64,000 nucleotides of DNA from IMG/VR virus record IMGVR_UViG_3300021197_001026, positions 1,048 through 65,047 of that record; one strand, written 5' to 3'. The position numbers were made by a program, and so were the translations under genes. Shown here one piece after another: positions 842-57,688 of the stretch. Below the pieces are notes generated by a model, which saw only the letters and a list, made by a program, of their open reading frames with translations, was not told where the DNA came from and ran no database searches. Positions within the stretch are counted from its first letter, which is position 1, and every line of letters begins with the position of its first letter. The stretch comes from a virus. Lineage: Duplodnaviria > Caudoviricetes.

Positions 842-1530
842 AACGAATACCCCCCAGGAGAAACGTACAATGACGCTTTGTTGCGATCCGAGTCTGAGGC
901 AAGCGTCCATTGCTCTTCGTAGTCAGCCTTTAGGGCTTGCGCTCTAGCACCCGCTGATGGGTACTTCATGCTTAACTGATAAGCTAAACCACTAACTAAG
1001 CAAGGCAAGAATCGAGCAGGAACATCTATGTTGTTCGCCGCTGAGTTGCCAGCATCCTCCACACGCTCCATGTAGTAATAACCAAACTGATAGGTCTCTT
1101 GGTCATCAGGTGTGGGCCACACATTGATTGTGATTGCGTCAGCGTTACGCTCGACGTAATACTGCAACGGCTTGCTTTGCGTGAGCTTGTTTGAAAGATT
1201 CGAGTACTGGCTTACAGAGATTCGAGTCATCGACTGGTCAAACTGCTGATTGACCTCACCTGCACTTGTCCTGACAAAAGCTTCGATAATGTCTAGAATC
1301 TTGCCATCTAGCGTGTACTGATTCGTTCCAGCGGTAAGTGCTTGTGTAGCAAAGTCTACAGACCAAAGGTTCAAGCCTCTGTTCTGCCACTCCAGCATCA
1401 TTAGGTTGAGGCTGCGTCTAGCGGTCTTATAGTCATACCCACTGCGAAGCTCTAAACCCGCCCGTTCAAATGCCTCTTCCAGTGAATCGGCAAGATCTAG
1501 GTTGAATGTAAACGTGCCGCTGGTAGCCAT
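838..1530 (-). CDS. Head-tail adaptor/connector protein, module A
   Basis: EEAFERAGLELRSGYDYKTARRSLNL...WQNRGLNLW. Lies downstream of MCP; homolog of 53762-54646. Function inferred from position. Confidence 0.65.
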   Translation of the reverse strand: MATSGTFTFNLDLADSLEEAFERAGLELRSGYDYKTARRSLNLMMLEWQNRGLNLWSVDFATQALTAGTNQYTLDGKILDIIEAFVRTSAGEVNQQFDQSMTRISVSQYSNLSNKLTQSKPLQYYVERNADAITINVWPTPDDQETYQFGYYYMERVEDAGNSAANNIDVPARFLPCLVSGLAYQLSMKYPSAGARAQALKADYEEQWTLASDSDRNKASLYVSPGGYSF

Positions 1531-1812
1531 CTAGATCATTCTTCCGCGAGTCTTACCCTTGATAGCTATCCCATCAATAGGCTTTGTTCTTGTCTTACCT
1601 CCGGCGCTCATGGAGGTAGAGCCAGCCGTAATTTTTTCCATGCGCTCCTTTTCAGCAGCTTCAGCGGCCTCCCTCTCTAGTCGCCGATCTTTCTTTTTAT
1701 CGCGCTGACGCTTCAGGTAACCACCCAGAGGGCTGATAGCAGCTAATGGCTCTTGAGCTATTAAACCACCCAAACCACCACCAAGTATTTGCCCTATCTC
1801 TTTCTTACCCAT
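1531..1812 (-). CDS. Small late protein with MSAGGK...GKTRGR C-terminus
   Basis: ORF tightly packed in the late operon. Confidence 0.65.
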   Translation of the reverse strand: MGKKEIGQILGGGLGGLIAQEPLAAISPLGGYLKRQRDKKKDRRLEREAAEAAEKERMEKITAGSTSMSAGGKTRTKPIDGIAIKGKTRGRMI

Positions 1813-1910
1813 TACGGCCTCCTAGCCTTTTGCTTCTTCTTAGAAACGCGCTTCTTCTTTGCTGGCGCATTCTTAATCTGTTTACCCATTTGCGCCCGAC
1901 TAATTGCCAT
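1812..1910 (-). CDS. 32-aa basic peptide MAISRAQMGKQIKNAPAKKKRVSKKKQKARRP
   Basis: Manual translation. It fills the gap exactly, with start and stop codons overlapping both neighbours. Confidence 0.7.
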   Translation of the reverse strand: MAISRAQMGKQIKNAPAKKKRVSKKKQKARRP

Positions 1911-2242
1911 CAGTCTCGACCAAACTTTTGTTTCTGTGACTTAGGTGGACTCTTAGTGCTACCACCCTTGCCAGACCAAAACACCTTATTCGCCCAGTAT
2001 GCGGCTGATGTCTTGCCCTTTTTGATATTCTTGCCGTGACGGGCTTTGAAGCTTTTACGCGCTTCTGCTGAATAATTATGCCCCATCTTCTGATCACCAA
2101 ACCGAATGATCTTCATCTTTTCGCCATCCCTAACAGCAACAACCGCCTTCTTAGACGGATGCTTTGGGGTGCGCTTTGGTTTGTTCAGTCCACTAAGACC
2201 AACCTTTTTTAGCCGGTTCTTCTCTGCATCGGTCAAACTCAT
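1910..2242 (-). CDS. Small Lys-rich protein (RFGD...F.ARH...A.YW), homolog of 56141-56425
   Basis: Conserved between modules A and B; ATGA overlap with the upstream gene. Confidence 0.75.
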   Translation of the reverse strand: MSLTDAEKNRLKKVGLSGLNKPKRTPKHPSKKAVVAVRDGEKMKIIRFGDQKMGHNYSAEARKSFKARHGKNIKKGKTSAAYWANKVFWSGKGGSTKSPPKSQKQKFGRD

Positions 2243-2493
2243 TTGCGATGCCTCGCTGTTTTCTTAGCTATCTTCTTGGGCTGCTTTGAGTGCTGCTTTC
2301 CCTTCTTGGTGTCTTCTCGTTTCTTCTTGGAAGTGGCAGCGTACTCCTTGTCTGATAGAGCCTTTCTAGCCTTCTTCGGGAGATACCTTTCACCTGTCGC
2401 CTTCTTGCCTTGGGTAGAGGGTTTACCAGACTTGGTTCCCCACTCCTGCTTTGTCCACTTCTTCAAGGACTTCTGGGACTTCTTGAGAGGCAT
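2239..2493 (-). CDS. Small Lys-rich protein
   Basis: LKKWTKQEW...RYLPKKAR resembles LKKWLKQNW...RCLPESKAR of 55594-55920. Confidence 0.7.
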   Translation of the reverse strand: MPLKKSQKSLKKWTKQEWGTKSGKPSTQGKKATGERYLPKKARKALSDKEYAATSKKKREDTKKGKQHSKQPKKIAKKTARHRK

Positions 2494-2684
2494 TAGTCTT
2501 TGTAGCCCCCGCCAGATTCCTTATAACGCTTAGCCAGCATCTGCGCTTTACGCGCAGACCACTGACCAGGCTTGCCGCCTTTACCACTAGCTTTGATTGA
2601 GTTGAACAGCCTCTTACGCAAAGCTGGCTTCGTGTAGTTGCCAGCTTCGTTTACTCGAGACTTGCTTTTCTTTTTCTCAGCCAT
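2493..2684 (-). CDS. Small basic protein (MAEKKKSKSRVNEAGNYTKP...WSARKAQ)
   Basis: ORF track entry trimmed to ATG 2684, just after the upstream stop. Confidence 0.7.
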   Translation of the reverse strand: MAEKKKSKSRVNEAGNYTKPALRKRLFNSIKASGKGGKPGQWSARKAQMLAKRYKESGGGYKD

Positions 2685-2685
2685 C

Positions 2686-3090
2686 TTAGAAGTGCTTACG
2701 CACCTGCATGATGATGCTATACACATCACCACTAGAGTGCCCTACAGTGGTAAACAATACGTCGCCGTTGACGCCAGAGCCTGCGTTGTTGGGTATGCCT
2801 GTAAAATCAGACAGATCCAACGTGTCAGCCCAGTCGGCGTTTAACTGCCAAGCAAGCACGTTAGTAGATGCATTAAAGAAGATCTTCACACCCATACCAA
2901 TGGTCGAGTAATAGATCTTCTGAATGCTTACCTTCGTACAAGCAGCGCCTGTCACAGGATCAGAGGCAAGCGCAGATACGTCAATTTTAGTAACTGCACT
3001 CTCGCCACTTCCATCGCTCACATTAGTGAATCGAAAGATAGCTGTGTTGCCATCGTCCTGTATGGTTTGAGTTGCTACTGCATCAGCCAT
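2686..3090 (-). CDS. Putative virion structural protein
   Basis: Beta-rich 134-aa ORF with GGAG RBS, in the cluster following MCP. Confidence 0.65.
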   Translation of the reverse strand: MADAVATQTIQDDGNTAIFRFTNVSDGSGESAVTKIDVSALASDPVTGAACTKVSIQKIYYSTIGMGVKIFFNASTNVLAWQLNADWADTLDLSDFTGIPNNAGSGVNGDVLFTTVGHSSGDVYSIIMQVRKHF

Positions 3091-3102
3091 ATCAAGCTCC
3101 TG

Positions 3103-3612
3103 TTACTGATCGGCAAATGCAGGCGCGGTTGTGCTCGTAACATTTCCGAAGATTTGATAGTTGGTAGTGTTCAAACCAACGATGGTTACATCAAATCCGG
3201 CAGGCACATTCAACTGTATGCTGCTGTTAGAGTTGCCATCAGAGAATACTGAACTCACCTCGTTACCATCCGTATCTAAGAAAGTAACACCGCCAATATA
3301 AAAGTTAGTGTTTCCTGGGGTGACGATGATTGCGTCAGTCGCATCAGCAGCGCCGCCAGCGTAAACAAAACGGAACACAGAACCGGCGATTGGCGCAGGT
3401 AAGGTGTAAGTGTTGTCTTGACCGCCATCTGGGACAAGTATGGTTCTGCCGCTATGCGTGGCATTAGTAATCGTAATATTGCCGTCAGCTAGGCTTACAG
3501 GGCCGTCACCAATAGTTGCAACCTCAGTAATCGCACCAGAGGTGCTGTCTTTGCTTACGGTTTTGAAGGTGCTTTCAGAGCGAACCGCACCAGTGAAAGT
3601 TGTAGTACCCAT
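3103..3612 (-). CDS. Putative capsid decoration/head fibre protein
   Basis: N-terminus MGTTTFTGAVRSE shared with 57073-57621; lies directly after MCP. Confidence 0.6.
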   Translation of the reverse strand: MGTTTFTGAVRSESTFKTVSKDSTSGAITEVATIGDGPVSLADGNITITNATHSGRTILVPDGGQDNTYTLPAPIAGSVFRFVYAGGAADATDAIIVTPGNTNFYIGGVTFLDTDGNEVSSVFSDGNSNSSIQLNVPAGFDVTIVGLNTTNYQIFGNVTSTTAPAFADQ

Positions 3613-3640
3613 TGTAGTCTCCTGTCTGGGTTAGTCCTTA

Positions 3641-3656
3641 TGTTCCACGTGGAACA
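3641..3656. promoter_or_regulatory. parS: parS-type palindrome TGTTCCACGTGGAACA
   Basis: Perfect intergenic 16-bp palindrome matching the bacterial chromosomal parS consensus TGTTNCACGTGNAACA. Confidence 0.7.
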
Positions 3657-3666
3657 ATCGGTCAGG

Positions 3667-3694
3667 AAAAAAGGTGGCCCCATAAGGAGCCACC
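3667..3694 (-). terminator. Intrinsic terminator after MCP-A
   Basis: GGTGGCTCC-TTAT-GGGGCCACC followed by T6 on the minus strand. Confidence 0.8.
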
Positions 3695-3705
3695 AATCCT
3701 TGACT

Positions 3706-4614
3706 CTAGCTAGAGCCTGGCGATCCGTAAATACCCAATGGGTCAGATACACCAAATGAGTAACGCTCACGCGCTTTATAGCGCACGTTACCTGTGTCGA
3801 AGTCACCGTCCATAGACGTTTCAAGCGGAGTACGCTCGAACATCTTCATACCATTCGGTACATCGGTGATCAAGAAGAAAGCATTGCTGTCAGTCAGGTA
3901 ATGATTGACGGCGTAACCTTCTGGGATCGCACCCATGTTACGGATGGCATTGATGTCGTTGTCAGCAGTGCCAACACGCTGAGTGGTTTCGAGCAGACGA
4001 TCTGCTGTAAACATCAAAGCGGGTGGTACGATCAAACGACGAGGACGTGCTGCAATCAGTAGACCTCGCTCATCAGTGAAAGCAGCGATCTCAATGATTG
4101 CATTTTCCAAAGATGTTTCGTTCAAGTCAGCGCCAGTAGATGGACGGTTGGCATTGGTGCCACCATTCACTAATGGATGCGAAGCGTTGAACAGGGTAAC
4201 ACCGTCTCCAGACTGGAAGCTGGTGAAGCCATTGTTCAGCGAGTTAGCTGCTTTGACTTGCTTCGTGTACGCCATAGCGCGAGAAAGCGCCTTGGTGTAA
4301 CGAGCCGAAAGAGAATCGTACAAATTGTCTTCCATCGCTTCCTCGGTGATCGCAAAGCCCATCGAAATGGTTTCGTGATTGTACCGAGCGGTGAAAGACT
4401 CTTGCGCTGAGTCATAGCTCGTTGCTGCACCTTCTGCCTTAACAGGAGCCGCTGCAAAGCCTGACAGCTTTACCTCTTCCTCGAATGAACGATCAGAGCT
4501 TTCTGTCTCATAAATGAGAGTGTGCTCGTCTTCGTATTTTTCGTACTCCAAACCAAACAGGGCGTTAAGCCCAGGCAGGAGTTCTTTAAGCATTTGCGCT
4601 CTTGAAATTGCCAT
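3706..4614 (-). CDS. Major capsid protein, module A
   Basis: 302 aa, MAISRAQMLKELLPGLNALFGLEY...GDFDTGNVRYKARERYSFG. Follows the scaffold gene and precedes a terminator. Confidence 0.9.
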   Translation of the reverse strand: MAISRAQMLKELLPGLNALFGLEYEKYEDEHTLIYETESSDRSFEEEVKLSGFAAAPVKAEGAATSYDSAQESFTARYNHETISMGFAITEEAMEDNLYDSLSARYTKALSRAMAYTKQVKAANSLNNGFTSFQSGDGVTLFNASHPLVNGGTNANRPSTGADLNETSLENAIIEIAAFTDERGLLIAARPRRLIVPPALMFTADRLLETTQRVGTADNDINAIRNMGAIPEGYAVNHYLTDSNAFFLITDVPNGMKMFERTPLETSMDGDFDTGNVRYKARERYSFGVSDPLGIYGSPGSS

Positions 4615-4627
4615 TGCCTAATTCTCC

Positions 4628-5215
4628 TTATACGCCGAGCTTGGTTTCGTAAGCGTGGCTCAAGGGCAGATAGGTAACGATGCAATCTGTGAATGCATCA
4701 CCTACGGTGCTTGATGGGCCATCTACGAAATCAACGACACGCAGTGGTAGTGTATTAGTCGTAGCGATAGAGCCGCCGTCTAGGGCGTTCTTGCTTCGAC
4801 CGATTGAGGTTGATCCAGCAGTGCTAACCGCTGAGATGTTGTTTCCAAGGCCGGTCTGAGCAATAGCCTCATCACCTTGCATACGGAACAACAACTTAGG
4901 ATCGTCAACAACGTAAGCAACGATATCGTCAGCAGCCGTAGATGCTGGGAATTGTTGGTTAAACGTCTTTTGGTTTGTTGATGGGTCTGTGTAAGCGCAG
5001 CCTACAAAGATACCAACAGTGCCAGCAGCAACAGAAGTTGTTACAGCGGCTTTTTCAACGGTGCCAGCAGCAACCAGCTTTACGAAATCACCATAAAAAA
5101 TAGCGGTAGCGTAAGCATTAGCGATCTTAATGTGACGAACTTTTCCCGTGAACGAGCCGCTCGCACTTAAAGTATCAACTGGTTCGGCACCCATAGGGGT
5201 AGCAACAGTAGCCAT
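4628..5215 (-). CDS. Putative capsid cement/stabilisation protein, module A
   Basis: Immediately upstream of MCP; homolog of 58661-59311. Confidence 0.6.
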   Translation of the reverse strand: MATVATPMGAEPVDTLSASGSFTGKVRHIKIANAYATAIFYGDFVKLVAAGTVEKAAVTTSVAAGTVGIFVGCAYTDPSTNQKTFNQQFPASTAADDIVAYVVDDPKLLFRMQGDEAIAQTGLGNNISAVSTAGSTSIGRSKNALDGGSIATTNTLPLRVVDFVDGPSSTVGDAFTDCIVTYLPLSHAYETKLGV

Positions 5216-5255
5216 AATGGCCTCCTAGTTAATAATAACTAACCCCTGCTAAGAG

Positions 5256-5708
5256 TTAGTTTCTTCCAAAAGTAGTCCTAGTGCTACGCTCTGGATTGAG
5301 CATAGGCATTCTAGGGTCGCTTTCTCTTAGGTAGTTGTTATCAACCGATGACATTTGGTTTTCCGCTATGTTCTGGAAATGTTGCGTTCTAGCAGCCATC
5401 GTTTCCTCTGGTGCTTTGCACAACAACAATCCACCAACCTCAATGTTGCCTTCAAACTGAGATCCGATATCGGAAGCCAGCATTAGTTCAGGATGGTCTT
5501 CAGCCTTTACGGGCGACCAACCTTCTCTGAACATTTTAGAAACATGGGTGTTGTCGGATTGACCAAGAAGCGATGTCTTAACCCACCGAAACACATAACC
5601 ATCTTGTGGCTCTGGGTCAGGCAGGATCGAGGCAGGCTTCCATGTGTCAGTCGGTCTTTCATCTACTTTACGAGAAGTTGATTTTCTTGGTGTGCGCTCT
5701 TCAGACAT
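5256..5708 (-). CDS. Conserved head-module protein
   Basis: W.P.S.L..P.P.DGY.FRW...REGW...VGGLLL; homolog of 59329-59814. Confidence 0.7.
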   Translation of the reverse strand: MSEERTPRKSTSRKVDERPTDTWKPASILPDPEPQDGYVFRWVKTSLLGQSDNTHVSKMFREGWSPVKAEDHPELMLASDIGSQFEGNIEVGGLLLCKAPEETMAARTQHFQNIAENQMSSVDNNYLRESDPRMPMLNPERSTRTTFGRN

Positions 5709-6751
5709 TACGAGGTCTCCTTTGCGAGTTGCCTCGCGTACTGTTCAGGGGTTAAACCCAACCTCTTAGCGAGAGAAAGCTGGGTGGACGTTAGCCGTAT
5801 TTTGCGCGGTTTAGCACCGTTGCTCCTTGCGGAGGGTGCCACCACCGTCGAGGGTTGATTAGCAGTCACGGATGCGTCACGCCCATATGTGTCGCCATTA
5901 TCCTGCCAATCATAGTCTGGGAAAGCTTGTCTCAGACGAGAATCAATCTGTCGGAAATACTCTTGGCTGTTAGGCTGGATGCCTCGCTTTATCAAAGCGG
6001 CATGTGTGCCATAAGCAAGGCTTGTCATTTCTTCAAAGCCATCCTGCATGAACCAAGAGTTCTTTTGCGCCCAACTTGCAGCTTCAGGATCTACCTGTGG
6101 CGGCTGTTGTTGAGCAACATTCTGTACAGCCTGTTCAGCAACTTGCTGCTGATACGACTGTTGTTCGTACTGCTCTCGTTGAGCTTGTTGAGATGCGACG
6201 TTTGTTTCGTATCTCTCGGCCTCATGTAGCTCTGCTTGCGCTCTTGTGAGGGTTTCTTGTGCAGATACTAGGTTATCAGTATCGCCCTCCTCATACGCCT
6301 TCTTGTAGCTATCACGGGCTTGTTGCAAAGAGAGTTCTGCGCGTTGCTTGATCTGAGCGACTAACGCTCCCTCACCACGATTGATCAGAGATTCCATCTC
6401 TTTATTCTTCGAGGCAAGCTGTTGAGCAACCCGCACAGCTTCTTCACGCATCTTTTCAGCGGCTTCGCGTTGTCGCCGCTCTTCGTGTTGTTCATAACGA
6501 AGCTTGTTGATTCGCTTTTGAACCTTTTCGCTGTAACCTTCTAGCTCATCATCGTCTTCATCATCAGATAACGCCTCAGACTTTGGAGGCCGACGATCTT
6601 CTGCGCTACGGTCATCAACGATTTCCAGTTCTATATCAGAGTCTGGTGACACTTCATCTCGGCTTTTACCGATCTGTGTACGGACGCCAAAGAACTTTTC
6701 CTCTGCGGAAGTTGCTTCAGGAGCTTCCGGCTCCATTTGTGCTTCACTCAT
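5708..6751 (-). CDS. Capsid scaffolding protein, module A
   Basis: Acidic coiled coil (YSEKVQKRINKL) with C-terminal LAKRLGLTPEQYA; homolog of 59811-60743. Confidence 0.7.
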   Translation of the reverse strand: MSEAQMEPEAPEATSAEEKFFGVRTQIGKSRDEVSPDSDIELEIVDDRSAEDRRPPKSEALSDDEDDDELEGYSEKVQKRINKLRYEQHEERRQREAAEKMREEAVRVAQQLASKNKEMESLINRGEGALVAQIKQRAELSLQQARDSYKKAYEEGDTDNLVSAQETLTRAQAELHEAERYETNVASQQAQREQYEQQSYQQQVAEQAVQNVAQQQPPQVDPEAASWAQKNSWFMQDGFEEMTSLAYGTHAALIKRGIQPNSQEYFRQIDSRLRQAFPDYDWQDNGDTYGRDASVTANQPSTVVAPSARSNGAKPRKIRLTSTQLSLAKRLGLTPEQYARQLAKETS

Positions 6752-7182
6752 ACCTTAATAATCCCCCTTGGATCTTCTACAGTGGCTTCAACAGAATCAT
6801 CGTTGATCAACCGAAACTCCTTACCATGCACCTTGAATCGGGTGCCTGAATAAGAACGCATAAGAATCCAGTCGCCTTCCTTACACAAAGCGCCGGAGGG
6901 GAATCGCTTAGGGTCATTATAAGCATCTGCTCCGAGCTTCAGAACCATGCCGACAATAGACCCTACCTCTTCGTCTTGCAGAGTTTTGGCAGCTTTTAAG
7001 ATGCCTCCCTCAGTCATTTCATCAGGCTCAGGTAGAGCGATTAACAGCTTATAACCTTTCGGTTCCGGCAACTGCTGCGCCGAGCGAGGCTCTTTGTCCT
7101 CGGTTACTGGATCTGGAGAAATCGATACCGATCCCACCTCACCTTGTGCTAATGCTTCAGACATTAGTATTACCTTCTGCAC
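6748..7182 (-). CDS. GroES-like co-chaperonin
   Basis: P.GYKLLI...TEGGIL...G.VLKLG.DAY...GDW...YSG...RLINDD, a Cpn10 pattern. Confidence 0.8.
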   Translation of the reverse strand: MQKVILMSEALAQGEVGSVSISPDPVTEDKEPRSAQQLPEPKGYKLLIALPEPDEMTEGGILKAAKTLQDEEVGSIVGMVLKLGADAYNDPKRFPSGALCKEGDWILMRSYSGTRFKVHGKEFRLINDDSVEATVEDPRGIIKV

Positions 7183-7225
7183 TGGAAAAAAGCGTCCAGA
7201 GTCGCTTGCACCGCTTCATGCGGCG

Positions 7226-7426
7226 TTATTCAGACTCGAATCTTGACTTCAAGTCTAAAATTTCTCGCTCAGCTAGGGCCAAACCTTCAATGATTCCGCA
7301 TACCTTTGCGTACTCGTTGAAGTCTTTGCATGCCCCGCCGCTTACATGATCTGCATACTCGTTCATTTGAACCCGTAAATGATCCCTCATGTAATCAAAC
7401 ACATTCTGAGAAGCGTTATTCATCAA
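7226..7426 (-). CDS. Small conserved protein after portal
   Basis: GACKDFNEY...G.I aligns with GGIKDMEHY...GEI of 61185-61382. Confidence 0.65.
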   Translation of the reverse strand: MMNNASQNVFDYMRDHLRVQMNEYADHVSGGACKDFNEYAKVCGIIEGLALAEREILDLKSRFESE

Positions 7427-9857
7427 ACACTTCTTTCGCTATCTGTATACCAGCCTTCAAACCTTCTACTTGGTCTTTAGATTCTTGCTCAGCAATCTTT
7501 ACACCAAGCCTTGCCTGCTCAATCTCTGCTTGTTGATCTAGACGTTGCTGATCAAGGTCTGCCCTAGCCATAGCCTTTTGAGCATCAAGCTGCAATCTGC
7601 CCATTTCGGACTGTGCCCTAGTCTGTGCTTCCATCTCTTTGATTTGCAACTCTTTTTGCTGCATCTGAATGATGGGATCTTGTGATTGCTGTTGCGCCTT
7701 CTGCTGTTGAGCCTGTTGCTGGTTAGAACCTTTCAACTGTTCAGCGGCTTGACCCGCCAATCTAGAGATTCTGAACTCAATATCTTCAGGCAGCGGCTCT
7801 CCAGGAGGTGGCAACTCGAATCCAAGCTGCTTTTCAATCTCAAGCCGGTACTGGAACGCCAAATGCTCTTGAACGTGGGCTGCAAGCTCTGCCATAGCCT
7901 TCTTGGCGTTAGGACTCTTGGACATGATCTCCATAACCTTGGGATCTTCTGCCATTGCCTTGTGCGCTTGGATGTGAGCTTCGTGATCTTGGTAGGCAAA
8001 CGCTTTAACAGGCTTACCGTTGATCATATTCATGTTTTCAGTGATCGGATCAGTCGGTTCTTGGTCGTCATCCGTTGGAACGATCTTATCTGCGTCCCGA
8101 ATGTTCAAGATTTCTAGCATTTGCCGGTGTAATAGCGGCATGTCGTACATTTCTGGCGCTTGTTGCGCTAATTGTAGTGCCGCTTGGTACTGCATGATGC
8201 GCTGAGCCATCGTTCCGGCGTTTGGATCGCTAACTGGGATGATATCTACCCGATCATCGAAGTCTTCAGCCACCATTGGCTTGTTTTCTTCGTCGTATGG
8301 GTACGATTCAGGCCCAAAATCACGCACAACGTTGGATAACAGCCGTAATTCACTACGCATAGAGGCATGTAGACGCGCTTGAACCGCACTCATCACCTTC
8401 ATAGAGCGTTCTAGTATCGCTAAGGTGGTGCCAACAGGTGCTTCAGCGTTCATATCCGCTGCTTTTACGTCTGCCGCCGACGCAAACCGTCTGCCTTCCT
8501 CAACAATGTCGCCCATAAGCTGATACAAAACAGTACTTGGCTCTTTGTAGGGCAGAAAACTGATGTTTTCTTTGATCGATCCACCCGGAACGTCCACATC
8601 TCGGAACTCACCAGGCATGATCGGGGTGTCATCACCCTTAATTCGTAAACCTCGAGCCTTCAAGCCACCTGGTAAGTTGGCAAGTGTGCCTGCATCAACC
8701 AGTTGACGGAGCAAAGAGGTAGCAGATTTCGCCAATCCACCAATCATGTGGATCAAACCAAACCCGTAGAAGCCTAAACCCGGCATATACTGGTAGTGAA
8801 CGAAGTGATCGCGCTTCATCTTGCGCTCATCGGTCTCATACCAGTTACGTCGTATTGACAGTATCGTGCGAGATGACAGATCAATCGACACCACATACGG
8901 CAACATGATGCCAGTAGGCTCACCTTTGTTCGTATCTTCAAACCCGACAAGATCTAGATCGACATTCATCTCTAAGATGGTGTGCCGGTAATCCATGTCG
9001 TAGTTGGCAGAGTCGCCGGTTAGCTCGTTGTACTTGCGCTCTATGTCATCGTAATCGGGGGCGGCTGCTGGTAACTCCACATCTAAGTAGAAACCTGCAA
9101 CTTGGAGCTTACGAATCTCATTTGCGCTGCGCTTCATCACATGTGTGTATCGCTCACACGTTGATAAGTCTGAGGCACCGTAACTAACAACGAAGTCTTC
9201 TGCCGGAACAAACATACTGCAAGGCCGACCCATGTTGGGATCGTAGTAAACCTTACGGAAAGCAGAACCTGCCAAAGGCAAAGAGAACAACATCCGTTCG
9301 GTTTCAGGCCGATACTCGGTCATCTTCTCGGTCAGCAGGTAGTTCAGATAGTCTTGAACTCGATTCGCTTGGTTTTCCTTGTCAGGGGTAATGGTGCCGA
9401 CCACTGAGGTCTTTACAGGCCCACCCGCTGGGAACAACTCTTGTATCGCCTGAGACTGAAACTTAATGACTGACTCGGTAAGCAGTGGATGAAACACACC
9501 ACAAGCGCCATCCCAAGGGGTGGTGCGGTCTTCATGCTTCAGCCCCAGCAGATCCAAACCTTCAATGTAGGTTCGTTCCCAGTCTGCACGACTTTCTTTG
9601 TCTGACTTGAAGGAGCCGACAAGCTCAGAGGCGATACCGTAAAGATCGCCCTCATCAATAAACTCAGCTAGGTTGGAGTCGTGGGACTCCGCACCCATTG
9701 GCACCATGTCTGGGTCAAAGTCGATGATCATCCCGCCGTCTTCGGTTTCTATAGATACCGCATCAGGATTAACAATCTCTATCTCTAGGTCAGGCTCATC
9801 GCCGGTTCCCTGAGAAAATATCGACTCTGGCGTAGCCAAAGGGCGGTCAATAGCCAT
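7416..9857 (-). CDS. Portal protein, module A (P22-like, long Q-rich C-terminal barrel)
   Basis: 813 aa, downstream of TerL; PGLGFYGFGLIH...LRQLVDAGTLANLP...PGEFRDVD. Confidence 0.88.
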   Translation of the reverse strand: MAIDRPLATPESIFSQGTGDEPDLEIEIVNPDAVSIETEDGGMIIDFDPDMVPMGAESHDSNLAEFIDEGDLYGIASELVGSFKSDKESRADWERTYIEGLDLLGLKHEDRTTPWDGACGVFHPLLTESVIKFQSQAIQELFPAGGPVKTSVVGTITPDKENQANRVQDYLNYLLTEKMTEYRPETERMLFSLPLAGSAFRKVYYDPNMGRPCSMFVPAEDFVVSYGASDLSTCERYTHVMKRSANEIRKLQVAGFYLDVELPAAAPDYDDIERKYNELTGDSANYDMDYRHTILEMNVDLDLVGFEDTNKGEPTGIMLPYVVSIDLSSRTILSIRRNWYETDERKMKRDHFVHYQYMPGLGFYGFGLIHMIGGLAKSATSLLRQLVDAGTLANLPGGLKARGLRIKGDDTPIMPGEFRDVDVPGGSIKENISFLPYKEPSTVLYQLMGDIVEEGRRFASAADVKAADMNAEAPVGTTLAILERSMKVMSAVQARLHASMRSELRLLSNVVRDFGPESYPYDEENKPMVAEDFDDRVDIIPVSDPNAGTMAQRIMQYQAALQLAQQAPEMYDMPLLHRQMLEILNIRDADKIVPTDDDQEPTDPITENMNMINGKPVKAFAYQDHEAHIQAHKAMAEDPKVMEIMSKSPNAKKAMAELAAHVQEHLAFQYRLEIEKQLGFELPPPGEPLPEDIEFRISRLAGQAAEQLKGSNQQQAQQQKAQQQSQDPIIQMQQKELQIKEMEAQTRAQSEMGRLQLDAQKAMARADLDQQRLDQQAEIEQARLGVKIAEQESKDQVEGLKAGIQIAKEVFDE

Positions 9858-14146: not shown

Positions 14147-14229
14147 CGTAACGATAAACAAAATTAATTCAAATTATTTTGCTGTGGGGTGTTGCACATT
14201 GCATGTTCGTTGTGGTCTCTTAAATGCCA

Positions 14230-14570
14230 ACGGCGACGGGGAGCCGACTGAATCCCGCCACCTAACACGGTGTAAGCGAGTCCCGAAACGGGCAGCGCTG
14301 CCAAGGTGAGACTACTAGCCGGTCAAAGGTGCTAGGGCAGGATAGGCGAAGAGCTATGCAGATCGTCCCGCAACGGGCATATCGATAGCGAGTATTTGAG
14401 GTCAACTACGGACGGAACGAGGCCAACAAGATTAGCGACACCTGCACCGCATTACAGCGGACAGACTAAAGCGATGGTGAACCCGTAGGGTTGAACATCT
14501 AGTGAAGTAAGACCCGGACGGGCAACACTGCTAGATGGCCCGAAAGACTGGCATCGCCCAACATCTGTAA
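14230..14570 (+). ncRNA. Putative large structured non-coding RNA, family unknown
   Basis: No ORF of 60 aa or more. Nested stems (GCGATG/CATCGC, CATCTAG/CTAGATG) and three copies of a GWCCCG-loop-CGGGCA hairpin. Confidence 0.55.
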
Positions 14571-14654
14571 AAGTAATGGTTTATCAGAGCGCACTGGCAA
14601 TCGGGCTAGTGCTTTCGAGTAAACCAACAAGCAAACCACAACGGAGAAAATCCA

Positions 14655-14795
14655 ATGGAACTAAACGACCACGCAGCATTTGAAAACCTAATGATCGAGA
14701 ACGAAATCGAGACCGCAGGTCTCACAGATCTAGTCGAGGCGAAGGTAATACCAACCGAGGAACTCGACCGAATACTCAACGAGCTTGGAGTGTAA
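14655..14795 (+). CDS. 46-aa acidic early protein (MELNDHAAFENLMIENE...)
   Basis: Manual translation; GGAGA RBS; first ORF of the + strand cluster. Confidence 0.7.
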   Translation: MELNDHAAFENLMIENEIETAGLTDLVEAKVIPTEELDRILNELGV

Positions 14796-14797
14796 AC

Positions 14798-15004
14798 ATG
14801 GCGACACAGACAACCGAGCAGCAATTCGTTCATTCAACCGACCAAGAGTTTCAAGCATTCATGGGCGAAAAGTTGAACCAAATGATCGAAAACGTTCTGC
14901 ACGATGCCCTAGTGGAAAAGGGCTGGAATGTTCACGCCGTGGCTGGCTGGAAAGCGAGCTTCGATGTGACGTTCATTCAGGAAACCTTTGAAGACGAGGA
15001 GTGA
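14798..15004 (+). CDS. Hypothetical early protein
   Basis: GGAG RBS; adjacent to the previous ORF. Confidence 0.65.
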   Translation: MATQTTEQQFVHSTDQEFQAFMGEKLNQMIENVLHDALVEKGWNVHAVAGWKASFDVTFIQETFEDEE

Positions 15005-15064
15005 TTGATTGAACAAAGCGCATTCACTGAGTGCGCTTGATTGAATCAATAACTAGGAAAACTA

Positions 15065-15316
15065 ATGACCTACGAAGTAGTGACAACAGCCCGAACCTAT
15101 GCCGGATACCTGAACTCAACCGAGTATCGAGTGCGAATCGAGAAAGATACCGAGCGTTTCTATGTCCTCAAGTACATAGATAACAAACACATCGGCACGA
15201 CTCGCATATCGATTGTTGAGCGCGGCGAAGAGGAGGCTCTGAGAAGAGCGCGAAAGTATGTAGACCTGTTCATTTCAGTATGCAGCAACTGGAACTATCG
15301 AAGATCCCCTAAGTAA
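15065..15316 (+). CDS. Hypothetical early protein
   Basis: AGGA RBS; ends 1 nt before the ribozyme. Confidence 0.6.
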   Translation: MTYEVVTTARTYAGYLNSTEYRVRIEKDTERFYVLKYIDNKHIGTTRISIVERGEEEALRRARKYVDLFISVCSNWNYRRSPK

Positions 15317-15377
15317 CTGTCGAAACCGCTCCGGCGGTCTGTATCGATTGGCCCCGATGCACTGATGAGACAGGCCA
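15317..15377 (+). ncRNA. Type II hammerhead ribozyme
   Basis: CTGTC-GAAA-CCGC(TCCG)GCGG-TC-TGTATCG(ATTGGCCC)CGATGCA-CTGATGA-GACAG. All core nucleotides and three stems are present; predicted GUC cleavage after 15339. Confidence 0.92.
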
Positions 15378-15407
15378 CCGAATTCTAAAACCAACGGAGA
15401 AAATCCT

Positions 15408-16343
15408 ATGAAAAAACAAGCAAACAAATTCGATCAGATCACCGAGACGATCATCAAACAGATGGAGACCCACGGCACCAACTGGACAAAACCATTCACC
15501 GATGGGCAAGGAGGCTTGCCGCGCCGAGCATTCGATGGGCGCAAGATGTACCGAGGCATCAACATCCTGATGCTGGGCTTGTGTGGCGGCTACTGGGCTA
15601 CCTATGACCGATGGCAGCAAGAGGGCTACCAAGTTCGCAAGGGCGAGAAATCCAGCACCGTGTATTTTTGGGCAGAACGGAAGAAAGAAGACCCAGAGAC
15701 CAAGGAAGAGGTGAAGTTCTGGGTGTTCAACTCCTACAATGTTTTCTCTGCCGATCAGCTAGAGGTGGCTGGCTTGGCATGTATGCGACGAGTCAAGGGC
15801 ACCAAGAAGAAAGAGCAGTTCATCAGCAAGGCATGGGTGAACCCTAACCCCACCGAGTTCAATGATGAGACCGAGATAGTCCAGGCCGCAGATGAATGGA
15901 TCGAGGCAACAGGTGCCGACGTGCGCCACAGTGCGAAGGGTGCAGCGTACTACTCACACGCCGACTTCATCCACATGCCGAACCGTGAGCTATTCCTTGG
16001 CAGCGAGACTGCCGACCCGACGCATTGCTACTACTCAACATTCCTTCACGAACTAACACACTGGACGGGTGCCTCGCACCGACTGAGCCGTGAGAAGGGT
16101 CACAAGTTTGGCGACAAGAAGTATGCATTCGAGGAGCTTGTTGCTGAGCTAGGCGCAGCGTTTCAGTGTGCTTTGCTAGGCATCTCGATGGAACCGAAGC
16201 CAGATCATGCCGAGTATCTCGCCAACTGGTTGACCTGTTTGAAAGAGCAGCCCAAGGCAATCTACAAGGCCGCATCACTGGCGCAGCAGGCGGTGGACTA
16301 CATCGACAAGTGCCAACCTATCAATCAAGAGGAGGCCGCATAA
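15408..16343 (+). CDS. ardC: ArdC-like antirestriction/ssDNA-binding protein with zincin-like domain
   Basis: W.KPF...YRGINIL.L...WATY..W...G.QVRKGEKS...Y.VF; HELTHWTG; YAFEELVAELGAAF; HAEYL.NW. Confidence 0.9.
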   Translation: MKKQANKFDQITETIIKQMETHGTNWTKPFTDGQGGLPRRAFDGRKMYRGINILMLGLCGGYWATYDRWQQEGYQVRKGEKSSTVYFWAERKKEDPETKEEVKFWVFNSYNVFSADQLEVAGLACMRRVKGTKKKEQFISKAWVNPNPTEFNDETEIVQAADEWIEATGADVRHSAKGAAYYSHADFIHMPNRELFLGSETADPTHCYYSTFLHELTHWTGASHRLSREKGHKFGDKKYAFEELVAELGAAFQCALLGISMEPKPDHAEYLANWLTCLKEQPKAIYKAASLAQQAVDYIDKCQPINQEEAA

Positions 16344-19179: not shown

Positions 19180-19872
19180 ATGAGTGAATTGAAAGTACTA
19201 GTTGCTTGCGAGACGAGCGGCACCGTGAGAGATGCGTTTTATATGGCAGGCCACGATGCGTGGTCTTGCGACATCCTACCAGCAGACACCCCAACCAACC
19301 GACACATCCAAGCAGACGTTCGAGAGGTGCTGAAGATGGAGCAATGGGATCTGTTGATGGTTGCTCATCCACCTTGTACCAGACTCTGCAACAGCGGAGT
19401 CAGATGGCTACACAAAGCACCACCTGACCGAACACTAGAGTCCATGTGGTCTGAGCTTGATGAAGGCGCTGCGCTCTTTCGAGAACTACTAGATGCCGAC
19501 GTGCCACTGATTGCCGTTGAGAATCCAGTCATGCACAAGTATGCGAAGGAGCGCATATGGGGTAAGGGATGGGAGAAGAAGTCAAAGAACGATGGGCAGT
19601 TCATCCAGACCAGTGTGCAGCCCTATGAGTTTGCGGCATCCATCGACGCCGAGGACAACGTGACAAAGCGCACTTGCCTTTGGTTGAAGGGACTGCCACC
19701 ACTACAACCCACCAGCACCCTAACCCGTGAGACGGCAAGGGATGACATCCACAAGGCACCACCATCCAAAGATCGCTGGAAGATACGCAGCAAGTTCCAC
19801 AAGGGACTGGCTGAAGCAATGGCAGATCAATGGGGTGGCGATTACTTAATCAACAAGGAGGTAGCAGCTTGA
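19180..19872 (+). CDS. Short phage C5-cytosine DNA methyltransferase-like protein
   Basis: VLVACE.SG.VR.AF, SCD, catalytic-like HPPCT, ENP, K.TCLWL, RSK...G.A.AMA.QWG. Confidence 0.75.
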   Translation: MSELKVLVACETSGTVRDAFYMAGHDAWSCDILPADTPTNRHIQADVREVLKMEQWDLLMVAHPPCTRLCNSGVRWLHKAPPDRTLESMWSELDEGAALFRELLDADVPLIAVENPVMHKYAKERIWGKGWEKKSKNDGQFIQTSVQPYEFAASIDAEDNVTKRTCLWLKGLPPLQPTSTLTRETARDDIHKAPPSKDRWKIRSKFHKGLAEAMADQWGGDYLINKEVAA

Positions 19873-20431: not shown

Positions 20432-20475
20432 AGTAATAGGCCACAACCCACATATCACAACAAATAGGAGAACCT

Positions 20476-21162
20476 GTGAAGACCGAAACCAAACAAGAAC
20501 TGCGTGAGCAACTGGATTCAGCTAACGAGAAGTTGATCGACACTGAACGTCGCCTGAGAGATTCAGAGACTCAAAGAGAATCGACACGAAAAAGATTCGT
20601 TGAGAAGCGTGAGCGTGTTGAGGAACTGGAGGCTCTGTTAGGCATCGAGAACCATGATCCAGACTTGGTAGACAAGTACAAGATCGTCCACCCAGACAAT
20701 GCTTGGTGGATGGAGTACTCCGATGCGTACATCACCATCAACACGCATGGCGAAGAGTCTGAACACCATGTAGGCCGGAAGCAGCGTGTCTGCACGATCC
20801 CGATTCCCAATCTTAACCTTTCAGCCAACTGGCATCACAAAGTGCCGAGGATTCGTGTATGGCAGGATGGAGAATGGCAGTATGTTGAGTCTGATGCTTG
20901 GGCGCTGGTCAGCGAAGACGACAAGGGGCAGGTGTGGGAGAGACCTAGTGTCGAGATCGGTGAACGTACCTACCCATCTGACACTGTTCTGGTTGAGACA
21001 CGCGAGCAATTCTATGCCCGTAAAAGGGTGGAGACCAACGAGCACATCGCTCTGTTACTCGATACCGCCCGAAGCATTACCGATCTGTATTCCAAGATTG
21101 GAGGCTGGCCTGACAACGAGGTCACTGTCGATGTCGAGATCAACAACATTCAGGACATTTAG
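20476..21162 (+). CDS. Hypothetical protein with N-terminal coiled coil, directly upstream of tasA
   Basis: AGGAG RBS, GTG start; ends 10 nt before the Tas gene. Confidence 0.65.
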   Translation: MKTETKQELREQLDSANEKLIDTERRLRDSETQRESTRKRFVEKRERVEELEALLGIENHDPDLVDKYKIVHPDNAWWMEYSDAYITINTHGEESEHHVGRKQRVCTIPIPNLNLSANWHHKVPRIRVWQDGEWQYVESDAWALVSEDDKGQVWERPSVEIGERTYPSDTVLVETREQFYARKRVETNEHIALLLDTARSITDLYSKIGGWPDNEVTVDVEINNIQDI

Positions 21163-21171
21163 GAGATTAAG

Positions 21172-22041
21172 ATGACCGAACAATCAATCCAAAACTCTAT
21201 GCTCAAGGCTTCTGTAAACGGGTTCTACTCAATGCAGAAAACGCGCATTCGAGTCGGTAACAATGTCGTTGCCAACTTCAAGATCAAGCTAGGCCAAGAA
21301 CCTAGCGCATCTGAAGATACGCTGGACGCAGACGCAAAGCTGTTGCTGGCGAACCTTCGAGTCAGCTATAAGAAGATCACGGACGGGGTTGTCAAACTCA
21401 ACCCCCGCAAGTTCAAGCAAGACGGCCTGATCTCAGAGTACAGCGAGCTTGCATTGCTCAAGCAGTACTTCGATCTGGTAGAGACAGAAGAGACTGCGCT
21501 CAAGCAGATCACCTACACCGTCAAGCAGTTCCCCATCTATCAAGCATTCCTTGAAGAGGTGAAGGGCGTGGGGCCAACGATGGCAGCGGTGATCATCTCA
21601 GGCTTTGATATCCACAAGGCGCAATATGCGTCCTCCCTATGGGCATATGCTGGTCTTGATGTGGTTGGCGACAAGGGCAGATCAAGGATCAAGGAACACC
21701 TAGTCGATCAGACCTACATCGATGCCGATGGCAAAGAGCAGACCAAGAAAGGTATCTCTTTCAATCCCTTTATGAAGACCAAACTAATTGGTGTGCTTGG
21801 ATCGTCGTTCGTCAAGACCAACGGTAAGTACCGTGAGATCTACGACAACTACAAGCACCGCATCACCAACATGCCTGCCCATGCTGAGAAGACCAAGGGG
21901 CACCTCAACAACATGGCGATACGCTACACAGTGAAGCGGTTCCTTGTGGATCTCTATATCGCATGGCGCACGTTAGAGGGACTGCCGGTTGCGGATGAAT
22001 ACTCAAAGGGCAAGCTTGGGATCGATCACAAGGTTGCTTGA
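21172..22041 (+). CDS. tasA: TIGR-associated (Tas) Nop-domain RNA-binding protein, nuclease-less TasA type (IS110/Nop5 related)
   Basis: Coiled coil, then FL..VKGVGPTMAAVIIS...SSLWAYAGL...FNP.MKT...H...A.RY.VK.FL.DL...WR. No N-terminal RuvC (DEDD) or HNH domain seen. The stop codon overlaps the first repeat of a 36-nt array. Confidence 0.87.
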   Translation: MTEQSIQNSMLKASVNGFYSMQKTRIRVGNNVVANFKIKLGQEPSASEDTLDADAKLLLANLRVSYKKITDGVVKLNPRKFKQDGLISEYSELALLKQYFDLVETEETALKQITYTVKQFPIYQAFLEEVKGVGPTMAAVIISGFDIHKAQYASSLWAYAGLDVVGDKGRSRIKEHLVDQTYIDADGKEQTKKGISFNPFMKTKLIGVLGSSFVKTNGKYREIYDNYKHRITNMPAHAEKTKGHLNNMAIRYTVKRFLVDLYIAWRTLEGLPVADEYSKGKLGIDHKVA

Positions 22042-22657
22042 GCCACCAAACGGGAGAAAACCAAGACTACTAAGCGAGCCACTTCGGGCTAGAAAACCAC
22101 AAAACTGAAGCGAGCCATACATCGAGAGGAAACCATCACGAAGAAGCGAGCCAGACTCGAGGAGAAAACCACGCACCTAAAGCGAGCCAGACTTCGCAAG
22201 AAAACCAGAGCAATCAAGCGAGTCATTATAGTAGAGCGACACAGGCCGAGTAAGCGAGCCAATGGAGATGAGAAAACCACATTAGCAAAGCGAGCCGTAA
22301 CCGACGAGAAAACCAAAGGGAGTTAGTGAGCCAGCAAGACGTAGAAAACCAATTGAGGTAAGCGAGCCATAGATTTATAGCAAACCAACACCTCTAAGCG
22401 AATCAAAAAGGAGAAGCAGACCATTCACATGGAGTGAGTCACTGGAACGAAGCAATCCAATTGGGCTTAGCGAGCCAACGGAGATGAGAGAACCACATTA
22501 ATAAAGCGAGCCATTATAAATGAGTAACCCACGCAGCTTTAGCGAGTCATGTGAAAGTAGAAACCCAGTTTTTCAAAGCGAGTCATCATATGCAAGCAAC
22601 CCACAATCATAGAGTGAGCCTGGACAGAAAAGTAAACCACTTACGGGGAGCGAGACA
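22037..22657 (+). repeat. TIGR (tandem interspaced guide RNA) array: 17 x 36-nt dual-spacer units plus a terminal repeat
   Basis: The edge repeat (consensus AGCGAGCCA) recurs every 36 nt from 22037 to 22649 (18 copies). The loop repeat (consensus AGAAAACCA) lies 18 nt after each. Each unit has two variable 9-nt spacers. Confidence 0.93.
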
Positions 22658-22665
22658 CAGTGGAA

Positions 22666-22974
22666 ATGGAACAAGTAATCGAACAACTCGAAGATCTAAT
22701 CGCACGTTGGGAGCAAGCGTCAGAGCACTTTGTCAGTGCAGACACTAGCTTCAAAGCGTGGGAAGCGAGCAGTAAGAAAGCCCTTATGGATCAAGGGTGT
22801 AGCGCAGCCAAGGCTGAGATACAGGTACGCAGTGACCCAGAATGGGAAAGCTATTACCTCAACGTGCAGCGGTGCAACATTGCAGTCGAGAAGAAGAAGA
22901 AGCAGATCAATGTCTGTCAGCTTCGTTTCGATGCAGCCCGTACCGCTAGAGCAGATGCAAGGAGGATCGTATGA
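22666..22974 (+). CDS. Hypothetical helical protein
   Basis: Starts right after the last TIGR repeat; ATGA-coupled to the next gene. Confidence 0.65.
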   Translation: MEQVIEQLEDLIARWEQASEHFVSADTSFKAWEASSKKALMDQGCSAAKAEIQVRSDPEWESYYLNVQRCNIAVEKKKKQINVCQLRFDAARTARADARRIV

Positions 22975-53759: not shown

Positions 53760-53761
53760 GG

Positions 53762-55310: not shown

Positions 55311-55313
55311 ATT

Positions 55314-55586: not shown

Positions 55587-55593
55587 ATATACC

Positions 55594-56425: not shown

Positions 56426-56442
56426 TCAAAAGTTCCTTATAC

Positions 56443-57060: not shown

Positions 57061-57072
57061 AACGTTCTCCTA

Positions 57073-57621: not shown

Positions 57622-57688
57622 GAGTATCTCCTGTCTTGGCTAGTGTCAGGCGCGGTATGCACCTGTCAGGGATTGTTTGAATATACAC

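Follow-up and report, generated by a model that had tools for sequence, protein, structure and literature searches.

A probable dual-repeat TIGR-TasA locus with a 17-unit guide array in an uncultured marine tailed phage

Introduction

This study concerns a stretch of 64,000 nucleotides (nt) of a tailed phage genome (IMG/VR record IMGVR_UViG_3300021197_001026, positions 1,048 to 65,047; from here: the window). On its + strand, an open reading frame (ORF) of 289 amino acids (aa), from here tasA, runs directly into a regular array in which two 9-nt repeats alternate with two 9-nt spacers. The gene product, TasA, and the array have the features of a dual-repeat TIGR-Tas system, in which short guide RNAs (tigRNAs) direct a Nop-domain protein to DNA.

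In TIGR arrays, two repeats of 8-12 nt alternate and are separated by two spacers of about 9 nt, which gives a 36-nt unit. TIGR arrays, the effectors TasA, TasH and TasR, the 36-nt tigRNAs and their targeting by tandem spacers were defined by Faure et al. 2025 (PMC12045711), who state the function of TasA and the origin of the spacers as not known. According to the same source, a typical TIGR array ends in a shortened repeat plus a terminator, and the box motifs of the two repeats may diverge yet covary between the repeats. The catalogue of Xu et al. 2026 (10.64898/2026.09.09.750476) comprises 20,096 tas loci and 6,685 arrays, 4,126 of them dual-repeat. Its authors report DNA binding and transcriptional repression by a stem-loop TasA and by dead TasR proteins, and call natural targets and spacer acquisition open questions. 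Judged by titles and the starts of abstracts, the literature on tigRNA and duplication held nothing concerning array growth, and that on TIGR-Tas, marine and phage nothing concerning a locus such as the one described here.

Materials and methods

All coordinates are positions within the window; the full phage genome is a single contig of 65,047 bp with 49% G+C. Loci used for comparison were those of Ralstonia phage phiRSL1 (L001), of 23 IMG/VR contigs encoding TasA relatives (L002-L024) and of two metagenome contigs (L143 and L144). The array comparison set consisted of the window array and 17 related arrays, giving 296 units in total, 271 of them internal. The TasA profile was built from 42 homologues and the same alignment was used for the AlphaFold2 model. 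Among proteins of solved structure, 20 of 30 pairs and 1 of 23 single chains attain the ipSAE mark applied in the dimer test. Local self-searches with the guides covered the joint orders A+rc(B) and rc(B)+A, where rc denotes the reverse complement and A and B the two spacers, with gaps of 0-2 on both strands.

Results

Organization of the tasA locus

The features of the locus are compiled in Table 1. Each unit of the array consists of an edge repeat with the consensus AGCGAGCCA, the 9-nt spacer A, a loop repeat with the consensus AGAAAACCA and the 9-nt spacer B. A first description made from the letters of the window (from here: the sequence-only reading) had placed the tasA stop codon within the first repeat and had counted 17 units that follow one another every 36 nt exactly, without indels; our re-parse returned the same arrangement, and all 17 spacer A/B pairs were identical letter for letter.

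The consensus is matched exactly by 8 of the 16 full-length edge repeats inside the array and by 7 of its 17 loop repeats. Column information in the window array was 1.1-2.0 bits for the repeats, except for loop positions 3 and 6 (0.4 and 0.9 bits), and 0.0-0.7 bits for the spacers. When the 64-kb window was searched for the two-repeat pattern AGCGAGCCA-N9-AGAAAACCA with up to 3 mismatches, 14 matches were obtained, all on the + strand within the array; 0.08 were expected from 100 shuffles, none of which reached 14. Tandem Repeats Finder reported two fragments only at the array, both with a period of 36. A translated 12-aa repeat, which the sequence-only reading had named as a competing possibility, is excluded because all six frames across the array are interrupted by 5-14 stops.

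The array starts with a shortened repeat, as typical TIGR arrays do. Its overlap with the tasA stop codon recurs in L143 and L144 and in those relatives whose arrays begin at the tasA stop, and the same terminal edge repeat was also found in L014, L143 and L144. Neither a sigma-70-like promoter nor a terminator-like site was detected on the + strand between positions 14000 and 25000. With no terminator-like site in this range and the downstream ORF beginning 3 nt past the terminal repeat, the array appears to lack a terminator of its own and to be embedded in an operon.

Table 1. Features of the tasA locus and of further regions mentioned in the text (window positions unless a contig label is given)
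Feature	Position	Strand	Remarks
tasA, 289-aa ORF	21172..22041	+	ORF call; solo-Nop TIGR-associated protein
First edge repeat CTTGAGCCA, 5'-truncated	22037..22045	+	overlaps tasA stop TGA at 22039-22041
TIGR dual-repeat array, 17 units of exactly 36 nt	22037..22648	+	no indels
Terminal edge repeat AGCGAGACA, full length, 1 mismatch	22649..22657	+	closes unit 17
Unit 7 (ATGGAGATG / CATTAGCAA)	22253..22288	+	paralogue of unit 13
Unit 13 (ACGGAGATG / CATTAATAA)	22469..22504	+	paralogue of unit 7
Unit 15 (TGTGAAAGT / GTTTTTCAA)	22541..22576	+	single copy in window
Upstream 228-aa ORF	20476..21162	+	without Pfam or PHROG match
Downstream 104-aa ORF	22660..22974	+	start 3 nt past terminal repeat
ArdC-type anti-restriction gene	15408-16343	+	Pfam ArdcN and MPTase-PolyVal
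DNA methyltransferase gene	19180-19872	+	Pfam/PHROG scan
NGDVING portal-gene sites, uncultured marine podoviruses	L106 5130-5147; L111 3615-3632; L072 6452-6469		matches unit 13 or unit 7/13 hybrid

TasA is a Tas protein without a nuclease domain

In a phmmer search against the PDB, the only matches to TasA were TasR (9mty_A, E 1e-13) and TasH (21kl_A, E 4.8e-7), and the profile of its 42 homologues matched TasR at 2.8e-29 and TasH at 9.3e-20. The AlphaFold2 model reached a predicted local distance difference test score (pLDDT) of 89.3 and a predicted template modelling score (pTM) of 0.84. A comparison of such a model with Nop and IS110 structures had been proposed in the sequence-only reading. 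In Foldseek against the PDB, the top 10 matches were all TasH or TasR chains (E 7.6e-9 to 5.5e-7), the recombinases IS621 and ISCro4 ranked next (E 4.8e-4 to 2.6e-3), and Nop56/58, Prp31 and Nop5 reached E 0.46-0.86 only. Pfam returned no nuclease family; Transposase_20 stayed below threshold (E 0.0017, 19.1 bits vs a cut-off of 21.3) and concerned the C-terminal part only. Among the PHROGs, family 4285, labelled 'transposase', matched TasA at 1.2e-32. The previously noted motif GVGP..AA.II...S.LWAYAGL is present, the region reading KGVGPTMAAVIISGFDIHKAQYASSLWAYAGLD.

In the model, residues 1-120 form three long helices without beta structure; the N-terminal and central helices span residues 2-39, 53-70 and 90-117, and the Nop-type RNA-binding domain begins at about residue 120. 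Helix 14-33 aligns with residues 120-139 of TasR, just ahead of the coiled-coil and Nop region of that protein (from about residue 145). The TasR nuclease is N-terminal and lies ahead of the part aligned with TasA from residue 14 onward. The all-helical N-terminus and its alignment just before the TasR coiled coil thus indicate a TasA architecture with neither RuvC nor HNH domain, in agreement with what the letters alone had suggested.

The prediction of a TasA homodimer gave an ipSAE of 0.77, compared with 0.00 for the best control, and a partner pLDDT of 80-84. The predicted interface is symmetric and involves helices 6-39 and 89-119, with a contact agreement of at least 95% over three runs. 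TasA is therefore predicted to form a symmetric coiled-coil homodimer; because Tas dimers have already been solved, the score expresses likeness to these and is no proof of binding.

Towards the C-terminus, Y277 is kept in 41 of the 42 homologues and aligned with the TasH tyrosine. H286 is kept in 30 of the 42, and most of the remainder have a histidine one residue off. In TasH, the catalytic H296 comes after the aligned 'EKLG'. By analogy, Y277 and H286 may be the predicted tigRNA-processing Tyr/His pair of the dual-repeat Tas clade.

Repeats and spacers

Throughout the 271 internal units, edge and loop repeats alike start with AG and end with CCA, and the penultimate C at repeat position 8 is kept in 269 or 270 of them. 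The loop repeat has an A-rich centre of four bases, which is its most variable portion. In the edge repeat, a possible extra pair C3-G6 is kept in 269/271, and the most variable position is C7, which is replaced by T in 37/271, where a wobble pair with G2 is still possible. In the tigRNA of TasR, according to Faure et al. 2025 (PMC12045711), each repeat is bounded by box D and box C, the loop repeat is A-rich and resembles a tetraloop, and the edge repeat has an extra G-C pair. The repeat anatomy found here agrees with this description in all but box D.

Read as RNA, the spacers of the window array and of the L002-L024 arrays are purine-rich, with A+G amounting to 61% in spacer A and 63% in spacer B, compared with about 48% on the + strand of the genome. 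C makes up 16-18% of the spacers and is avoided at the last spacer position (3-4%). A target would accordingly read as a purine-rich 9-mer followed by a pyrimidine-rich 9-mer. Selection for stable short RNA-DNA hybrids is one possible reason for the bias. The passages of Faure et al. and Xu et al. considered here make no mention of it, and the word 'purine' occurs 0 times in Xu et al. 2026 (10.64898/2026.09.09.750476).

Relatives of TasA and of the array

Among 90%-identity clusters, 695 proteins matched TasA at E ≤ 1e-5, and 2672 representatives of 50%-identity clusters matched at E ≤ 0.001. Among the 120 homologues listed of those 695, most are 285-290 aa long and many come from ocean surveys. 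Many of the 50%-cluster representatives P0121-P0270 have lengths of 330-700 aa and align with the query in two or three separate segments; the breaks often lie near query residue 166, a pattern suggestive of insertions at a single position in the Nop domain. Among cultured phages (tblastn), the best match was ORF034 of phiRSL1, followed by a Microcystis phage, Salicola phage CGphi29 and two archaeal viruses.

The 23 IMG/VR contigs encode TasA proteins with 67-96% identity, and in 22 of them an array follows tasA at once or after a short distance. In the closer relatives (81-96% identity), the edge repeat AGCGAG[C/T]CA and the loop repeat AGAAAACCA are as in the window. Three of the four contigs with 67-68% identity have AACGAGTCA and AGTCACCCA instead; the exception, L017, showed no array within the first 360 nt downstream of tasA. 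In this clade both repeats are altered while the ends still read A[A/G]...[C/T]CA, so that the box motifs diverge yet covary between the two repeats, as Faure et al. 2025 (PMC12045711) describe. L143 and L144 likewise keep the repeats and vary in the spacers. The repeats thus covary with the TasA clade while the spacers change.

Turnover and duplication of guide units

The 296 units comprise 173 distinct spacer pairs in 132 families, 66 of which occur in more than one locus. Comparison between arrays gave a bimodal distribution of best-match distances, in which units have either a counterpart within 0-2 mismatches or none at all. The mode of the best-match histogram lies at 0 mismatches, and in phages with a tasA divergence of 2-15% at fourfold sites the best match is at least 9 mismatches away for 308 of 513 units.

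The tasA genes of L143 and L144 differ from that of the window at 26 and 33 of 870 nt, respectively. Their arrays are collinear with the window array from unit 6 to 17 and divergent between units 1 and 6; L144 is without unit 3 and has five other units in that section, 3/5 of which recur at 0-1 mismatch in more distant arrays. Unit turnover is found mainly in the tasA-proximal third of the array. Repeats become more degenerate towards the end of the arrays, with 0.56 mismatches per unit in the first quarter and 1.41 in the last quarter (Spearman 0.20, p 7e-4, n 271).

Contigs of two other studies (X8 and X9) have two identical copies of unit 15 in tandem, where the joint leads from 22576 back by 36 to 22541; in the X8 piece, all 8 other differences lie downstream of the array. 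In L144, the same unit forms a tandem pair (units 19 and 20) whose members are 2 mismatches apart. The set contains ten distinct pairs of paralogues within single arrays, including units 7 and 13 of the window, which differ at 3 of 18 spacer positions.

Some guides are retained over considerable distances: L014 and L024 show 0/72 spacer differences vs 21% at tasA fourfold sites. The identity of L144 to the window is mosaic, with 99.2-99.3% in the array and downstream and 95-97% in tasA. Because recombination, seen as this mosaic identity, can explain the constancy of spacers, purifying selection on them is not claimed.

Searches for guide targets

The 8-nt 3' overhang and the 'C - 5 rule' (Faure et al. 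2025, PMC12045711), together with the '3' unpaired segment' (PMC13421893), suggest that a target should read spacer A and then the reverse complement of spacer B on one strand. As this layout is a deduction, both joint orders were searched locally. The 17 guides had 0 sites with up to 2 mismatches in the 65,047-bp genome, 3 sites at 3 mismatches and 48 at 4, where about 4.5 and 48 were expected by arithmetic. In 259,740 bases of DNA from this phage and related ones, the 173 lineage guides had 10 sites with 2 mismatches and 156 with 3, compared with 6-10 and 149-155 for shuffled guides. That near-self matches occur at the expected count argues against targets in genes homologous to those of the phage itself.

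Overlaps (tiling) among the guide targets did not exceed chance (one 8-nt overlap vs 0-1 in shuffles), no 4-mer stood out among the guides, and the differences between variant guides were without a period of 3. Arrangements of the type 'SD...ATG', a Shine-Dalgarno-like element followed by a start codon, occurred 6 times in the guides vs 2.5 +/- 1.6 in shuffled ones, a weak excess. In its target form, guide 11 resembles a ribosome-binding site with an ATG behind it. The closest matches to this guide lie at the beginning of the upstream ORF (20463-20480, 3 mismatches) and at the tasA start of L002 (3128-3146, 2 mismatches, gap 1), both at chance level.

A search of host and virome sequences for the 18-mers had been put forward in the sequence-only reading; the scans of viral and species genomes gave chance-like matches only. 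In the viral collection, unit 2 had 4 matches at 3 unrelated loci in the order A+rc(B) and 0 in the reverse order. Guide family 3 (unit 6) had 6 matches at 3 unrelated loci, family 2, which is absent from the window, 26 matches at about 10 unrelated loci, and the degenerate pattern of units 7/13 had 58 matches. In 185,579 species genomes, unit 2 had 24 matches over unrelated taxa, with about 17 expected by arithmetic.

One candidate target was followed and rejected. It is a site encoding NGDVING in the T7-like head-to-tail joining (portal) genes of three independent marine viral contigs (Table 1), matched exactly by unit 13 and also by a unit 7/13 hybrid. These matches are not distinguishable from chance, because unit 13 has 5 other independent exact matches, exact matches of unit 7 fall outside portal genes, and no other guide matches those contigs beyond chance. 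A search for further portal loci of this kind gave back the query alone.

Genome context

The terminase shares 59.7% identity with its counterpart in Pelagibacter phage HTVC027P, and the capsid protein has 73.2% identity with phages named for Synechococcus and Planktothrix and 65% with HTVC023P. By these sequences, the source appears to be an uncultured marine tailed phage related to the pelagiphages HTVC023P and HTVC027P. The stretch is present in seawater or marine metagenome runs of at least nine other studies. Both window ends (1-9857 and 52825-64000) show an ORF series of similar sizes.

The tasA locus shares a + strand block with the ArdC-type and methyltransferase genes, an association that is consistent with an early or counter-defence region, and appears to belong to an accessory, probably early operon on the + strand. 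Directly 5' of the ArdC gene, positions 15318-15379 (+) matched the Rfam family Hammerhead_II with 36.5 bits vs a gathering threshold of 37 (E 0.00015).

The upstream 228-aa ORF had a tblastn match directly 5' of tasA in 7 of about 17 relatives with enough upstream sequence and no blastn match in L143 or L144. In comparison with these two contigs, the gene in 20505-21160 is replaced, or diverged past blastn detection, and the rest is 95-99% identical; the slot directly upstream of tasA looks variable. For the downstream genes, including the 104-aa ORF, no homologue was found at that place in any of L002-L024. No ParB-like or nuclease family was detected among the 10 neighbouring ORFs scanned with Pfam and PHROGs, and no constant partner gene was seen across the neighbourhoods of the relatives.

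Discussion

Interpretation and proposed mechanism

We interpret the locus as a dual-repeat TIGR-TasA system in an accessory, probably early + strand operon that would serve the RNA-guided binding of foreign DNA without cleavage, and assign this interpretation a probability of roughly 0.87. The assignment to the TasA type of TIGR-Tas, made before any comparison, has held up: TasA shares homology and fold with TasR and TasH, the array has 36-nt units with 9+9-nt spacers, and the spacers vary while the repeats are kept.

The following course of events appears plausible. Given that no promoter or terminator was found on the + strand and that the next ORF starts 3 nt past the array, tasA and the array would be co-transcribed within a longer transcript. 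TasA, by its likeness to the solved Tas dimers, is predicted to dimerise symmetrically via its N-terminal and central helices. As in SpTasH, it may bind the pre-tigRNA via the AG...CCA ends common to both repeats, and Y277/H286 may, on the same model, cut inside each edge repeat, which would release 17 tigRNAs of 36 nt. Spacers A and B of each tigRNA would pair with opposite strands of an 18-bp site, independently of a protospacer adjacent motif, a mode of recognition that is established for the family. The nuclease-free complex would then block transcription or replication without cutting, as shown for the stem-loop protein MbTasA.

The presumed targets are foreign DNA and not the phage itself, the latter point being shown for its own 65-kb genome. 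Mobile elements seem a somewhat better candidate than host genes, because whole guide units turn over fast between near-identical phages and variant guide pairs coexist within an array. The earlier suggestion that 17 DNA binders are produced early in infection and silence the host or block rival phages is supported by no result obtained here.

Several observations speak against this interpretation or parts of it. In TasA, H286 sits 2 residues later than the position of H296 in TasH, and box D is AG in this array vs UG in TasR. Unlike a typical TIGR array, that of the window ends in a full-length repeat (with 1 mismatch) and without a terminator-like site, although the shortened end is a typical and not a defining feature. 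Repression has been demonstrated for stem-loop TasA and dead TasR only, and not for a dual-repeat TasA (Xu et al. 2026, 10.64898/2026.09.09.750476). No natural target emerged when four guide families were scanned against the viral collection and one guide against the species genomes, and the preference for mobile elements over host genes has array dynamics as its one source. None of the listed sequencing runs that contain the stretch is recorded as RNA, an observation without weight in either direction.

Alternative explanations

TasA and its tigRNA might only locate a site, while a recruited effector, such as the product of the upstream ORF, a host or phage nuclease or a ParB-like partner, destroys or relocates the target, in which case the system would be destructive instead of repressive. 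Operons that combine tasA with a ParB-like gene have been described (Faure et al. 2025, PMC12045711), and the 228-aa ORF of no known family stands directly upstream both here and in 7 of the roughly 17 informative relatives. That ORF, however, is inconstant, lacking a blastn match in the closest relatives L143 and L144; no downstream gene is conserved in L002-L024, and the 10 scanned neighbours contain neither a ParB-like nor a nuclease family, apart from ArdC and the methyltransferase further upstream. We consider such an effector-dependent system unlikely. Far less probable is that the guides repress the phage's own promoters as a timing switch of its life cycle. Xu et al. 2026 (10.64898/2026.09.09.750476) list the regulation of viral life cycles as a possible role, and guide 11 resembles a ribosome-binding site plus ATG with near-sites at the starts of the upstream ORF and of the L002 tasA, but the 65-kb genome has zero sites with up to 2 mismatches, its counts at 3 and 4 mismatches (3 and 48) equal the expectation (about 4.5 and 48), and on 260 kb of own and related phage DNA the real guides performed no better than shuffled ones.

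The locus could also be misread altogether. A decayed transposase of the IS110 family next to an unrelated satellite or translated 12-aa repeat, without guide function, would fit the sub-threshold Transposase_20 match (E 0.0017, 19.1 vs 21.3 bits), the 'transposase' label of PHROG 4285 and the annotation of the phiRSL1 homologue as transposase. We regard this as scarcely credible, as TasA has no DEDD (RuvC-like) domain and IS621 ranks below all Tas structures, no frame is open across the array, repeats are kept and spacers variable across 22/23 relatives, and the family is large and constrained (2672 cluster representatives at E ≤ 0.001). Two further identities were examined and rejected. CRISPR-Cas systems are characterised by single repeats of 25-36 nt, single spacers of similar size and cas genes; they are ruled out by the two alternating 9-nt repeats with 9-nt spacers, and no cas family was found among the scanned neighbours. 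A box C/D small nucleolar ribonucleoprotein has as its hallmarks a Nop domain with a fibrillarin-binding N-terminal domain, kink-turn (K-turn) guide RNAs and L7Ae; an identity of TasA with Nop5 or Nop56/58 was discarded in view of the weak fold similarity (E 0.46-0.86) and of 9-nt repeats without a K-turn.

Renewal of the guide repertoire and significance

For the dual-repeat TIGR-TasA system preferred here, the array comparison permits a tentative proposal, which we consider possible but rather doubtful as a whole: the guides may be renewed without adaptation genes, by loss, gain and re-assortment of units close to tasA and by tandem duplication with subsequent point divergence, while retained guides would stay near-constant at about 30% divergence of tasA fourfold sites and spacers would be selected to be purine-rich. 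If this route were general, TIGR repertoires would be inherited, recombining 'germline' sets of guides and not CRISPR-like records of encounters.

Within its class, the locus is nothing unusual: TIGR-Tas systems have been known since 2025, TasA is the most frequent effector among them and the catalogue already lists 4,126 dual-repeat arrays (Xu et al. 2026, 10.64898/2026.09.09.750476). Its value is that of study material, as a compact dual-repeat TasA system of high regularity that belongs to an abundant group of marine phages and has many natural array variants. This lineage could address two questions that the papers, in the parts concerned, call open, namely how arrays gain spacers and what their natural targets are. 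The comparison already shows turnover at the level of units, a tandem duplication and the absence of self-targets. Some new detail is added by the position of the turnover, the states of unit 15, the purine-rich spacers and the embedding of the array in an operon.

Comparison with known systems

The IS110/IS621 bridge-RNA recombinases share a related Nop-like RNA-binding domain with TasA (Foldseek E 4.8e-4; Transposase_20 below threshold). They possess a DEDD (RuvC-like) catalytic domain, use a single bridge RNA and recombine DNA, none of which applies to the window system. Among cultured phages, the closest homologue is the phiRSL1 protein ORF034 ('transposase'), with 34.2% identity over 97% of the query. 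The 1.4 kb without annotated gene that follow ORF034 (L001 4985-6409; record 14218-15642) read as a degenerate array with repeats of the types AGTGAG.C and AGTCACCC. In this jumbo phage of a soil bacterium, the array-like region has irregular unit lengths and weak repeats, and Tandem Repeats Finder reported nothing there.

Among the Tas systems with solved structures, SpTIGR-TasH of Salicola phage CGphi29 (PDB 9w03, 9w04 and 21kl; PMC13421893) is likewise phage-encoded and dual-repeat. SpTasH and TasA share the Nop fold (Foldseek E 7.6e-9; profile 9.3e-20), their C-terminal Tyr/His regions align, and the CGphi29 record matches with 25.6% identity (tblastn). TasH, however, carries an N-terminal HNH nuclease and cuts DNA, whereas the N-terminus of the window TasA consists of helices only; the spacers of SpTIGR total 16 nt, compared with 18 nt in the window array (Faure et al. 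2025, PMC12045711). TaTIGR-TasR of a Thermoproteota archaeon (PDB 9mty) is the best sequence match among the solved structures, with a root-mean-square deviation of 3.2 over 267 columns. It shares with the window array the CCA repeat ends, the A-rich loop and the extra G-C pair of the edge repeat and differs from the window system by its active RuvC and the box D UG.

The stem-loop proteins MbTasA, PlTasA and BlTasA (10.64898/2026.09.09.750476; 10.64898/2026.08.11.744272) are nuclease-free like the window TasA, and MbTasA binds target DNA and represses transcription reversibly (Xu et al. 2026, 10.64898/2026.09.09.750476). As described in these sources, their guides are framed by hairpins and they are without the Tyr/His processing loop, whereas the window locus has plain dual repeats and keeps the Tyr/His pair. 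FpTIGR-TasA of Flavonifractor plautii (PMC12045711), compared by description only, shares with the window system the solo-Nop Tas protein, the adjacent dual-repeat array, the 9+9-nt spacers and the 36-nt unit. The window system differs in that it lies in a marine phage operon, its array starts on the tasA stop and has no terminator, and box D reads AG. FpTasA pulls down 36-nt RNAs (Faure et al. 2025, PMC12045711), the length of the tigRNAs that the 17 units described here would yield.

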